From NCBI RefSeq assembly GCF_006345805.1, contig NC_042999.1, forward strand, positions 59,210,001 to 59,274,000: a stretch of DNA of 64,000 nucleotides, in the 5' to 3' direction. Both the position numbers and the translations under genes were made by a program. How positions within the stretch are numbered: the first letter of the stretch is position 1; each line of letters begins with the position of its first letter. Positions 39,795 through 56,475 of the stretch are shown here, in pieces. Under the pieces are notes generated by a model that saw only the letters and a program-made list of their open reading frames with translations, made no database searches and was not told the origin of the DNA. The stretch comes from Octopus sinensis (Eukaryota).

Positions 39795-40313
39795 CAAATA
39801 CTGAGAGGACACAGATAGTGTGTCTATAGCCAGCCGGGGGAGATATCTTCCTGGGGCTACAAACTACAGTAGCATCCACCCTTATGGGTTAGCCATATTC
39901 AAATGGCAAATATTCGCCACGATGTTACCGCTACTGTTTATAACTCGCTCTGAGATTTATCATTGTTTGATTTCACTTTTTCAATATCAGTGTCAATGGA
40001 CACTGGAAAAAGTATATGTATTTGTGAAGGGATCTGACTTCTCGTCGACAACCATGTTTGTCACACGCTGATGAAAGGTAAACACCTTGAAACTCGGGTA
40101 CGTGTGTATCATGTGTTGAAGACGGGGAGGATGACTCCCCTTCACAAATACTGAGAGGGCACAGATAGTGTGTCTATAGCCAGCTGGAGGAGATATCTTC
40201 CTGGGGCTACAAACTACAGTAGCATCCACCCTTATGGGTTAGCCATATTCAAATGGCAAATATACGTCACGATGTGTTACCGCTACTGTTTATAACTCGC
40301 TCTGAGATTTATC

Positions 40314-42744: not shown

Positions 42745-43319
42745 TATAAATTTATAAATAAGGGTGAAAATTGATATTAATTTAACAATACCATTAATTT
42801 AACACCGAGTGGCTTAGCACAAAAAACTAGTGAGAAAATACAAATTTATACATAAATTATTAGAGAGTTACCACTATGTGGATAGCTCTAGTGCTAAAAA
42901 TAGCTCCGAAAGTATAGCCACAGAAATGATGTTTCCAACTAGAAATAACATTACGGTTAACGGAAGGAAAGTGAAACATAACGAATAAATAGATTGACCC
43001 TGAACAATTGTTTCATTACTAATGTAATATGTAATTTTACTTACATAAACATCTATAAATCATCAGCAGAGGTTTGTCTTAAATACAATTTATTAGACCA
43101 ATACGAGCGTCAATTACACGTGCGGTTTAACCAATTGCATTTTTAGTTATGCCTCAAAATTCCCCGCGAAAGGCATGCTAAGACTCGTTGGAAACGTATG
43201 CTGCATCAAATAAAATATTTACTGCCGCATAATTATAAATTTATAAATGAGGGTGAAAAATTGATATTAATTTAATAATACCATTAATTTAACACCGAGT
43301 GGCTTAGCACAAAAAACTA
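42745..43319 (-). mobile_element. Retrozyme-like / pLTR-like element, ~490-nt unit with ~85-nt terminal redundancy
   Basis: Direct repeats 42745-42829 and 43234-43319, (TA)n on both sides, hammerhead motif in the middle on the minus strand. Confidence 0.75.
42998..43071 (-). ncRNA. Type I hammerhead ribozyme motif
   Basis: Minus strand CTCTG-CTGATGA-[long stem II with TATGTAA/TTACATA, mismatched at its base]-GAAA-CAATTG-TT-CAGGG; palindromic stem III, GUU site. Confidence 0.75.
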
Positions 43320-43462
43320 TGTATATATATGTATATATATATACATATATATATATATAATATATATATATATGTATGTATAAGGTGGAAAAGGAACACA
43401 CGGTTGATATATATGAAAAAACAAGTCAAAAATAGAAAATGCTAAAATAATTTTATAGTGAA

Positions 43463-43510
43463 CATTTCAGTACCGGTTTCGGTCATTTTGAGACCTTTTC
43501 AACTGTAACG
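43463..43510 (-). ncRNA. Minimal hammerhead ribozyme variant with U3:A8 core
   Basis: Minus strand CGTTACAG-TTGAAAA-GGTC(TCAAAAT)GACC-GAAA-CCGG-TA-CTGAAATG. Confidence 0.7.
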
Positions 43511-44204
43511 ATTAAATAATTAAATTTAGAAAAATTAGAAGAAAAGTTTTTTTAAAAGAATATTTCTATAGTAGTGTTCAGATTTAAGTGGCATTCTGCC
43601 TTTCTCTGACTCCCTTGTATGCACTTGTGTGTTGGAGGTCGTTGTGAGTTCTTGGTAGGGTAGTAGAGGAAGAAGGCTGGTGATGAAAGGGGGTGGGAGA
43701 ATCTGGGAGTGCCCTGATGGTCGTATTTTGAATGGTCAGTGGCGGCTGGCAGTCTCAGTTCAATTCAGGAGAATATTTATATTGACAGGCTTGTTTATAG
43801 AATTAGCGTAGGTGTTATACTAAAAAACATTAGTGACAAAGTTAAGGGGTAGGAGGTGGAGAAGTAGAAGAAGAAGAAGAAGAAGATGACGATGTTGATG
43901 ATGATGATGATGAAGAAGAAGAAGGAGAAGATGACGATGATGGTGATGGTGGTGATGATTATGACGACGATGATGATGATAATGATGATGATGATGATCA
44001 GGGCACTCCCAGATTCTCCCACCCCCTTTCATCACCAGCCTTCTTCCTCTACTACCCTACCAAGAACTCACAACGACATCCAACACACAAGTGCAAACAA
44101 GGGAGTCAGAGAAAGGCAGAATGTCACTTAAATCTGAACACTACTATAGAAATATTCTTTTAAAAAAACTTTTCTTCTAATTTTTCTAAATTTAATTATT
44201 TAAT

Positions 44205-44252
44205 CGTTACAGTTGAAAAGGTCTCAAAATGACCGGAACCGGTACTGAAATG
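44205..44252 (+). ncRNA. Inverted copy of the U3:A8 hammerhead variant, GAAA mutated to GGAA
   Basis: CGTTACAG-TTGAAAA-GGTC..GACC-GGAA-CCGG-TA-CTGAAATG. Confidence 0.55.
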
Positions 44253-44314
44253 TTCACTATAAAATTATTTTAGCATTTTCTATTTTTGACTTGTTTTTTC
44301 ATATATATATATAT

Positions 44315-44369
<55 letters not shown>

Positions 44370-45546
44370 TTTCATAGATATTTATCCATTTTATTCTAGT
44401 TAGTTTACATGCGTTTCCCAAAAATTCGGAGAAAGAGTTCCTAACACAAACTTTGTTGAAAACATGTTTCAACTAACTAAACAGACAAGGAATTGTAGGT
44501 TGTTTTGGAGAAAACGTAAAACGTGTCTACAAGGCGAATCCTAGAAGAAAGAAATATGAAATGTAACACAAGATGTTACTAAACTTCTATGATGAAAACT
44601 AAGACGTGTAAGAGATTTCCCCTCTTCCTATCACTATATCTCTCTTCCTCTCCTTCTTCTCTCCACTTTCAAGGATAATGAAAATAGAAAAATCGATCGC
44701 ATTTAAGCCTCATTTTTAGTTTTAATTTTAATTTTAAAATTTAATACTAATTTTAACTTTAGATGACTCTGAGAGTTTCCTCTCCTTGCCTCCTTGCCTC
44801 TATCTCCTTTTCCTTAAAAGAGAGAGCAATAACAAAACGAAACGCAACTGAAGAGGAAAATCGATCGTATTTAATTCTTAAACCTTCCAAACGTAGACTA
44901 AAGAATTTCATATTTACAAGTTATATTATACTGACAAGTCCAGAATAATGGGCGAAATAGCACAATCAACAAGTACTAAAACTATAGGGATATTCCAATA
45001 AATGAAGTTTATGAAAATATGGAAACACCATATATTTTTTCACTCATAGGAAAAAGACCGCTCAAGATAAGGAAAGAAAAACAACAAAAGATACAAACGT
45101 TAAAGTCGTTCCCACGCCTTAAGGAGAATATTCTCCCTCTCTGTCATCTCATTGTGTCATTCGCTCTCAGGCTCAGTAAGCAACTATGTGCAGGAACAGC
45201 TCTAGTCCCAGTTAAGAAATCACGTATATAGGCGCAAGATTGACTGTGTGGTAATACACGCGTATTGATATCTGTGAATGTGTGTAGATGTATGCAAGTG
45301 TGAGTCTGTGTCTGCTTGTGTATGTGTATGTTTGTGTGCGCTTACGTGTCTGTGTGCACGCATGTGCAAAATGTAACCGTCTTGAAACTCTCAAACTCTA
45401 ATAAAACTGAACAAACGACCTTCGTATCTCCTAAATTATTTATGCTAACTTAATTCGTTCACATTTATTGGGTGCCAAGTTGATATTACTAAAATATTCC
45501 AGTGCCTTCATCCATGCATACATAAGCAGTACTTACTCTACATGTA

Positions 45547-53856: not shown

Positions 53857-53902
<46 letters not shown>

Positions 53903-54059
53903 TATATATATGAAGCAATAAAGATTCAAGTTAATTTAAATGAATTTACTTGAATATGGTACCTAACTTAGATGCACCAAAAAAAAAACTATACTGTTTT
54001 AACAATACAGTAATGTGGGGTGATTATAAGCGAGAAAGAAGCAACAAGAATGGATAGGT

Positions 54060-54150
54060 TTTTAGTACAATCGTTTCATACAAGGACAGGCTTTATTAAA
54101 AGTTGTAAAAATTACAGCATATAAACGTGTCCCGTACTCATCAGCTAAAA
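54060..54150 (-). ncRNA. Type I hammerhead ribozyme (left-arm copy)
   Basis: Reverse complement of 54879-54969. Confidence 0.8.
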
Positions 54151-54878
54151 TACATGTGAGTTCTCTAGACATCCTAGTGGTTGAGGCTATACTCATGAAG
54201 TAATGTAGATAATTAAGTAACATAAACAGATTTCCAAAGTTCATTAAAGTTCTTTAAAGATGATGTACAGTCTTATCACAGAATTTAAAAAAAGTTCTAA
54301 TAGCATCACAGAGAAGGTGACCTAATCCATAGAGCACATATGAATTTCCAGAGATATGATGAGGGATTACATACTCACAGAAGACAAATTTATCCATTGT
54401 TAATCACAACGAGGTGGGTCTCAATTCCTGCTTATTAGCATTACAGAGAGGGTGAATTAATCCTTTGTATAGATGCACAATTTCCAATGGTGTAGATGTA
54501 AGTTTCCAGAGAAATGAAGAGGAATTTCATATTCACAGGCGATAAATTTATCAATGGTTGAACACAATGAGGTAGGTATCAATTCTTGTTATATGATTAG
54601 GTATTTGCCACATTAATCACATTACTGCTATTTACAAGAGGCTGTAGCTATTTTCAAGTATGTAGCTATTTAGCTGTAGCTATTTTCATATGTGCTCTAT
54701 GGATTAGGTCACCTTCTCTGTGATGCTATTAGAACTTTTTTAAAATTCTGTGATAAGACTGTACATCATCTTTAAAGAACTTTAATGAACTTTGGAAATC
54801 TGTTTATGTTACTTAATTATCTACATTACTTCATGAGTATAGCCTCAACCACTAGGATGTCTAGAGAACTCACATGTA

Positions 54879-54969
54879 TTTTAGCTGATGAGTACGGGAC
54901 ACGTTTATATGCTGTAATTTTTACAACTTTTAATAAAGCCTGTCCTTGTATGAAACGATTGTACTAAAA
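54879..54969 (+). ncRNA. Type I hammerhead ribozyme (right-arm copy)
   Basis: TTTTAG-CTGATGA-GTACGGGACA(long loop)TGTCCTTGTAT-GAAA-CGATTG-TA-CTAAAA; 6-bp stem I, about 10-bp stem II, GUA site at 54963. Confidence 0.8.
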
Positions 54970-54999
54970 ACCTATCCATTCTTGTTGCTTCTCTCTGGC

Positions 55000-55095
<96 letters not shown>

Positions 55096-55472: not shown

Positions 55473-55514
<42 letters not shown>

Positions 55515-55566
55515 AGTGAATGGAATAAATGGAGTTGAACGAAGATTGTACAGAATACCTTTTATT

Positions 55567-55652
55567 ACATTCTACACATGTTTCGAAGGCCACAAATTTC
55601 CAAATTCTGTTTAAATAAGGGTACCATATTGCGGCTTTCTCTTCAGGAGCAT
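55567..55652 (-). ncRNA. Type I hammerhead motif (left-arm copy)
   Basis: Minus strand ATGCTC-CTGAAGA-GAAAGCCGCAA...TTGTGGCCTTC-GAAA-CATGTG-TA-GAATGT; stem I imperfect. Confidence 0.65.
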
Positions 55653-55713
55653 CTTCGTTTGAATTGCTGTGCCTCTGTTATGTTTTGTCCTGTCAACGGA
55701 ATTCCTGTTTTTT

Positions 55714-55793
55714 TTCCTGAAGAGAAAGCCGCAATATGGTACCCTTATTTAAACAGAATTTGGAAATTTGTGGCCTTCGAAACATGTGTAGAA
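55714..55793 (+). ncRNA. Type I hammerhead motif (right-arm copy)
   Basis: TTC-CTGAAGA-GAAAGCCGCAA(loop)TTGTGGCCTTC-GAAA-CATGTG-TA-GAA; stem I only 3 bp. Confidence 0.65.
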
Positions 55794-56038
55794 TGTAATA
55801 AAAGGTATTCTGTACAATCTTCGTTCAACTCCATTTATTCCATTCACTAATAATATTAAACTTCAATTATCCGCTCCAACGCACGGTTGCAACACCAAAT
55901 GGTCTTATCTCCAACCGTGCTGTTTTCCGCTGTGATTTTTGCTACCCAGGTATCGGTTAAACCTTTGAATAATCTGTTACAAGAAAATTCATCTTTCTAT
56001 TTCAACAAATATATATATATATATATATATTATATATT

Positions 56039-56096
<58 letters not shown>

Positions 56097-56475
56097 GAAT
56101 TAAGAAATAGAGTTAAATGCAGGTGTTATTCAAATCTTTATACTTCCGACATATGTTTCGAAGAAAACATTGGTATTATTCCTAAGGGAATAAGATGATA
56201 TAAAACAATTCGTTTAAAATGGCTTATTCATGTGTTTTGTTTCTCTTTTTTCTCTGACGTAATGATTACATTGTTTTACATCATTTTATTCCCTGAGGCA
56301 TAATACCAATGTTTTCTTCGAAACATATAACGGAAGTATAAAGATTTGAATAACACCTGCGTTTTAATCCATTTCTTAATTTATCTATGTTAATCAAAAA
56401 CATTTCACTCAACCCTGGAATATCTACCTTTACAAGTAGGCTGTAACATCCTTGGCATTTATAGGAATTTCTGCT
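56097..56475 (+). mobile_element. Older fold-back element with 112-bp inverted arms and decayed hammerhead
   Basis: Arms 56098-56209 / 56270-56381 with about a dozen mismatches; arm consensus TTCC-CTGAGGA-...-GAAA-CATATG-TC-GGAA. Confidence 0.7.

Follow-up and report, generated by a model that had tools for sequence, protein, structure and literature searches.

In a 64,000-nt stretch of the Octopus sinensis genome (hereafter, the window), a near-perfect palindrome between positions 53912 and 55000 carries a predicted hammerhead ribozyme on each strand. The locus raises the question of whether such a structure is a stand-alone RNA device, an artefact of sequencing or the product of an insertion and, in the latter case, how two copies of one sequence came to lie head to head.

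The inverted repeat aligns 54025-54344 with 54685-55004 over 320 nt at 98.75% complementarity (E 1e-162), which excludes chance. Four mismatches separate the arms, and a single one (54742/54287) falls within 54685-54992, in agreement with the first-pass annotation, which had described 308-bp arms differing by about one substitution. The palindrome is confirmed as real in the assembly. That it is a fold-back artefact of long-read sequencing or assembly is extremely improbable: none of the listed contigs, which are short, bridges the junction, but the arms differ in length at both ends as well as at the four mismatched sites, and a 31-nt templated filler lies between them. Additionally, a fold-back read would mirror the flanks, whereas the flanks beyond the (TA)n tracts differ, and the regular pairing of unequal arms over many loci, described below, has no artefactual cause.

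Table 1. Positions of the features that make up the palindrome and its target in the window.
Feature	Positions	Strand	Remarks
(TA)n target, left side	53857..53911	.	TRF
Tail of about 115-120 nt, long-ended arm only	53912..54029	-	leads towards the ORF start in the parent element
Long-ended arm, the 3' end (pseudo-LTR) of the element	53912..54653	-	-584 to about +151 from the hammerhead cleavage site
Type I hammerhead motif, core CTGATGA at 54144	54060..54150	-	predicted cleavage after 54066
Two diverged repeats, about 158 nt apart	54302..54600	-	inherited from the 3' untranslated region of the parent
Junction filler, 31 nt, with two extra TGTAGCTATTT copies from the end of the left arm	54654..54684	.	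unique to the locus
Short-ended arm, the same element end	54685..55000	+	-278 to about +37 from the hammerhead cleavage site
Type I hammerhead motif, core CTGATGA at 54885	54879..54969	+	long stem II; 2-bp helix III; predicted cleavage after A54963
(TA)n target, right side	55001..55095	.	TRF

As shown in Table 1, the two arms represent the same end of one element. The long-ended arm matches other copies of the family over 741 nt at 98-99.9% identity, and near-identical matches (about 99%) to the right arm are scattered across the 2.7-Gb genome. Since the element sequence of the left arm extends over the whole of 53912-54653, the apparent spacer of the palindrome is mostly the longer arm. No long ORF was found at the palindrome among the 69 frames of at least 100 aa that were checked. 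At this locus, a young Penelope-like retrotransposon of the Hydra clade has inserted into a (TA)n tract, leaving 5'-truncated copies in head-to-head orientation. The first-pass annotation had read the palindrome without a transposon, and this reading has to be replaced: both arms are 3' ends of a Penelope-like retrotransposon, and the structure is no stand-alone device but a routine retrotransposon insertion, one of several hundred.

The parent element was recognized from longer copies. Copy L031 consists of a pseudo-LTR piece, an ORF and a 1.5-kb 3' UTR that ends in the arm again, giving a unit of 4592 nt, and a sister copy (L148:1998-4838), 92% alike in the pseudo-LTR, retains a 947-aa frame without interruption, in which two Asn-rich stretches (at about residues 490-570 and 669-799) are of low confidence. 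Pfam returned nothing for the reverse transcriptase (RT) region or for five relatives, and sequence searches of the PDB were blank, so that structural folds were needed. In Foldseek, the model of the 947-aa frame retrieved TERT chains at ranks 1-6 (E 8e-9). In a structure comparison, telomerase RT was the top hit by Z (16.2; rmsd 4.2, 299 residues aligned), with a DGR RT tied within 1. The YRDD motif is invariant in 67 relatives, and among named proteins the closest relative comes from Argonauta, at 46% over the RT. The C-terminal domain is predicted to be a GIY-YIG endonuclease, from lines of evidence that are each weak alone and concordant together: the modelled last 148 residues are nearest to I-TevI and T4 EndoII (E 0.056-0.09, weak), and Pfam GIY-YIG matches this domain with an E of 0.0015, below the curated cut-off.

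The 947-aa frame contains RWK at 37, DKT at 124, a CxCx5C linker at 808, CxxC at 905 and CxH at 935. According to the accessible text of Craig 2021 (PMC8557442), the Hydra clade is defined by RWK, DKT, a CxCx5C linker, and CxxC and CxH in the EN domain. Based on these motifs, the (TA)n preference and the modelled folds, we classify the parent as a Hydra-clade Penelope-like element. The Neptune and Nematis clades were ruled out, since they need DKG and a CX2-5CxxC linker and the frame has DKT and CxCx5C. A partial-tandem pseudo-LTR, 5' truncation, an inverted copy and a tail at one end were all seen in the family (L031, L057 and L100). The legend of figure 2 in Craig 2021 describes an inverted 5'-truncated copy with the tail often at one end only, and the head-to-head architecture is described both there and in Arkhipova 2013 (PMC8557442, PMC3846280). 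The locus itself is thus unremarkable: its architecture is known, and it comes from a Hydra-clade family for which we found no published name. The present family shares with Hydra-clade C-terminal EN+ elements the RWK, DKT, CxCx5C and CxxC/CxH motifs, a canonical hammerhead, the (TA)n target and the inverted 5'-truncated copy with its tail at one end; it differs in its 4.6-kb unit, with Asn-rich inserts and the 1.5-kb 3' UTR, against usually <3 kb, and in the length of its tail, against 30-40 nt (accessible text of PMC8557442). Hydra-1_Obim of Octopus bimaculoides, the one Octopus member in the supplement as far as accessible, is a different family by a by-eye comparison, with another hammerhead and another protein (PMC8557442). 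Frames of another Hydra-like element were observed directly upstream of one family copy (L045:3210-5385, minus strand); its N-terminal region has at least 150 matches genome-wide, at 45-100% identity, which points to many related families.

The hammerhead reported on each strand was recovered by a descriptor scan, which found a type I motif in both arms, with a 6-bp stem I (TTTTAG/CTAAAA), a long stem II, GAAA and a 2-bp helix III; the CUGANGA core, GAAA, NUH and helices I-III are all present in both motifs. The core segments are identical in 91 of the 105 family arms, and in the parent element the motif occurs upstream of the ORF and again at the 3' end. An Rfam scan of the window gave no match at the gathering score, and free folding of the 101-nt ribozyme region was not better than that of shuffles (z -0.42). 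The monomer fold is predicted to lie 2 kcal/mol above the best alternative fold, and the helix III loop is self-complementary, with a predicted 8-bp self-duplex of -5.8 kcal/mol; this combination would fit hammerheads of the dimer type as they are presented in the accessible text of PMC6155905. Both arms keep sequence past the cleavage site, which indicates that the template RNA was uncut there. The two predicted hammerheads are likely passengers, one per pseudo-LTR copy.

Two sets of repeats had been proposed as template-switch scars, and only one of them is a scar. The two diverged repeats of the spacer exist, aligning over 102 nt at 77% identity with an offset of 158 nt, and are not among the repeats listed by TRF for the window; nevertheless, they belong to the parent sequence, because 54302-54653 aligns over at least 340 nt, nearly without gaps, in 44 other sampled arms, mostly at 95-99.7%. 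The reiterations of TGTAGCTATTT at the inversion junction (54643, 54661 and 54675) were correctly interpreted: 8-mers of the left flank cover 24 of the 31 filler nucleotides, which none of 2000 shuffles reached. The doubled TGTAGCTATTT pattern of the filler occurs once in the whole genome; thus, only 54654-54684 is locus-specific. Fillers of at least 20 nt with local reiteration were found at 4 of 48 other junctions (L056, L065, L089 and L102), and most junctions of the family are either blunt or have overlaps of a few bases.

Copy number was estimated with a 23-nt piece of the core, which has 1049 exact matches in the genome, against none for the reversed control. The first 100 of these matches (contig C1 and part of C2) correspond to 66 insertions, all of which were retrieved. 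By extrapolation, the genome would hold roughly 700 insertions and 500 palindromes. A (TA)n tract abuts nearly all ends of the sampled insertions and both ends at the window locus. Head-to-head copies account for 47 of the 66 insertions, and the remaining 19 are single or tandem, which means that the second arm is not obligatory; L060, scored among these 19, has a 21-nt short arm.

The 3' ends of the family lie at two positions from the cleavage site, +35 to +43 (short) and +148 to +160 (long). One end was unreadable in 3 of the 47 inverted insertions, leaving 44, among which 43 pair a short with a long end and none pairs two long ends (binomial p 3e-12 against 0.5); the exception is the complex locus L081, which is short+short. 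The window locus is of the short+long class. The arms of one insertion also share their haplotype: over 16 polymorphic columns in 44 arm pairs, the window included, they agree in 313 of 320 comparisons (permutation mean 70%, maximum 85% of 5000). Divergence is 0.63% between the arms of one insertion vs 1.72% between loci, and 15 of the 30 doubleton variants among 113 arms were found in two arms of the same locus. The value of the present analysis lies in this pairing rule of the family, not in the locus.

The 5' breaks range from +126 to -3806. Removal of 9 junction rows, which came from 8 loci that are complex or duplicated, left 39 simple pairs. In 8 of them, the 5' breaks of the two arms lie no more than 10 nt apart (permutation mean 0.85; none of 20,000 permutations reached 8); the remaining 31 comprise 17 in which the short arm extends further 5' and 14 in which the long arm does. 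Exact mirror points, several of them on short palindromes, form 6 of the 39 junctions. The position -584, considered as a special truncation hotspot, was dropped as unconvincing, with 5 of 111 sampled 5' breaks between -608 and -581. Short ends occur alone in 10 of the 66 insertions. A G added before TATA is present at 34 of 59 short ends (9 of 10 solo and 25 of 49 paired); it is not templated at the short end and is absent from 54 long arms that read through the short-end site. We also observed a G before TATA at most family ends, short and long, and TATAC at the 5' junction of several single copies (L059, L066 and L067). At L033 (G000:C11:51773000-51781000) and L103, whole insertions with the same junction are repeated 2 kb and 8.7 kb apart, reflecting either segmental or assembly duplication.

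About 500 nt from the main palindrome, the window holds a second head-to-head hammerhead palindrome (55507-56012; core CTGAAGA at 55717), which belongs to an unrelated young family. Its ends lie at +66 (short) and +222 (long). The 20 best-scoring loci of this family represent 17 distinct places, 16 of which are inverted; all 16 combine a short (+62 to +72) with a long (+222) end, or 15 of 15 without the window, which repeats the pairing rule. A GIY-YIG-like frame was observed in L124, a locus related to this family.

We propose that the window insertion was probably built by twin priming at both target ends on the same element RNA. Reverse transcription of this RNA would be primed by each of the two cut target ends, from a start site about 37 nt past the hammerhead in one case and about 155 nt past it in the other. 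The two cDNAs would terminate early, and their 3' ends would be joined, likely by microhomology. At the window junction, two rounds of local re-copying before joining would have produced the 31-nt filler, for which the RT and polymerase theta, a host repair polymerase, are both candidate makers. We infer this order of events, as well as the use of one RNA rather than of two from one source locus. In LINE-1 twin priming, reverse transcription likewise begins from both target ends on one RNA, with microhomology joining the cDNAs; the internal position used by the second primer varies, and the two parts have no overlap. Unlike in LINE-1, both starts in the present family are fixed near the 3' end, so that the same sequence is copied twice. 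Biochemical precedent comes from Anolis: in the accessible text of PMC11167929, the protein of an anole Penelope-like element cuts and extends both strands in vitro, and the RNA is used uncleaved from two internal start sites that bound the tail. Counting against the proposal, no difference in start site between the strands was seen there.

Alternatively, the second arm could arise by self-priming or snap-back, on antisense RNA, as put forward by Arkhipova 2013 (accessible text of PMC3846280), or by use of the first cDNA as template, followed by trimming of the centre. The haplotype common to both arms and the exact mirror points fit such a process, which we nevertheless consider unlikely. Self-priming predicts that one arm is nested in the other, and the 17 of 31 pairs whose short arm is longer 5' cannot be copies of the present long arm, whose tail is moreover absent from the short arm. 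Self-priming should also copy back to the long end, but long+long pairs number 0 of 44 and 0 of 16 in the two families. The mirror centres of L064 and L068, with a one-base loop, would be better explained by the annealing of two strands, and the solo short ends carry the same junction signature, the added G, as the paired ones, which counts for twin priming. On the other side, palindrome centres, if deleted asymmetrically, could yield non-nesting at a later time, which counts against twin priming, as do the short+short locus L081 and the 19 insertions scored as single or tandem. Taken together, the strict short+long pairing, shared haplotypes, non-nested arms and shared breaks favour twin priming over the published self-priming.

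A further variant, twin priming in which a protein dimer holds two RNA molecules transcribed from one source locus, would account for shared haplotypes and non-nesting without displacement of a cDNA, and the anole element is predicted to be dimeric (accessible text of PMC11167929). Shared haplotypes fit two such RNAs, or conversion between arms, as well, which counts against twin priming on a single RNA. Nevertheless, two RNAs alone leave the strict short+long pairing and the excess of shared 5' breaks unaccounted for, and we regard this variant as improbable, more so than self-priming.

How Penelope-like elements make tandem and inverted structures is named as an open question by Craig 2021 (accessible text of PMC8557442). 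In the open-licence literature searched, we found the architecture in print, and neither the pairing rule as a count nor a twin-priming model for Penelope-like elements. The Poseidon element PAc of Anolis resembles the present family in its two internal starts bounding the tail, AT-rich target and template uncut by the hammerhead, but belongs to another clade, and the accessible text does not address inverted-pair formation or the use of one site per strand (PMC11167929). Penelope of Adineta vaga shares head-to-head pseudo-LTRs, a tail in one arm, palindromes at junctions and an ORF with Asn-rich inserts; the mechanism proposed for it was self-priming on an antisense template, whereas the present counts favour two separately primed arms (accessible text of PMC3846280). 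Non-LTR retrozymes also carry a type I hammerhead in a short non-coding unit derived from Penelope-like elements, but are head-to-tail tandems of a fixed unit (accessible text of bioRxiv 10.64898/2026.07.22.740005); copies of the present family lie head to head without a fixed head-to-tail unit, and their 5' breaks vary, with a gradation to full-length copies, so that the family was not assigned to the retrozymes. As a young high-copy family, it offers a test bed in which counts separate twin priming from self-priming and lead to clear predictions for the in vitro system already available.

The first-pass annotation had further suggested that a transcript of either strand would fold and mask its sense ribozyme, and folding predictions agree. 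The region 53912-55000 folds at about -635 kcal/mol on either strand, the core pairs with the other arm at a probability of 0.997 or higher, and on both strands transcription reaches the antisense arm before the sense arm. Read-through RNA of either strand is predicted to form a long duplex in which the sense ribozyme is buried. Duplex RNA would arise only if the locus is read through, in which case the family would supply long duplex RNA in a lineage that edits heavily. According to the accessible text of Porath 2017 (PMC5625713), octopus has very high hyper-editing and duplex potential, and Penelope elements are heavily edited in a lizard, which makes the suggested role of the duplex as an editing substrate plausible.

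We looked for editing in the listed contigs, which for 54345-54992 come from 4 of the 24 listed runs. Among the runs on record, none from RNA is listed as containing the sequence, which is no evidence for or against expression. Run X16, guessed to be RNA, has 14 T>C places vs 2, 3 and 2 in three deeper runs, with six low-depth X16 sites (54826, 54920-54922, 54931 and 54934) at zero depth in all three. Among the listed places of this interval, no A>G cluster matches the T>C changes. The contigs have depths of 2-8, the DNA runs compared are not from the same animal, and X16 reads are assignable to the family, not to the locus. The cluster looks as expected for A-to-I hyper-editing on the antisense arm and is a weak hint at the level of the family; the suggestion thus stands as plausible, but not as a property of this locus. 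We abandoned the possibility that editing of the template RNA shows up as surplus A>G changes in the copies: A>G accounts for 2 of 14 variants private to both arms and for 16 of 141 singletons, which is no excess.

Could the host have selected this hairpin as a regulatory element, be it a ribozyme switch, an RNAi substrate or an editing substrate? The stable predicted duplex that masks the core and the clustered T>C changes in X16 speak for it, but the arms are ~99% identical to hundreds of scattered copies, the same geometry recurs in most sampled insertions and in the second family 500 nt off, the editing hint is not specific to the locus, and a search of 10 frames with Pfam, a weak test, found no host gene above the cut-off in the window. 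We consider such selection very improbable. Returning to twin priming, a broader proposal, to which we give slightly less than an even chance, is that Penelope-like elements may use it in a coordinated manner, with one RNA and two fixed starts, one per target end; the inverted repeat would then be a normal product, the tail a direct footprint, and the hundreds of near-perfect hairpins per family present here would feed A-to-I hyper-editing.

Other repeats were observed in the window. A third, older palindrome (56091-56475) has 119-nt arms at 90% with degenerate hammerhead cores in both, and its right arm seems longer than its left. A 400-nt inverted pair at 92% lies at 43319-44389, where no hammerhead core was found. 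Finally, a compact type I hammerhead-like motif at 40060-40108 (plus strand; core at 40068) adjoins a 172-nt direct repeat (39795/40145).
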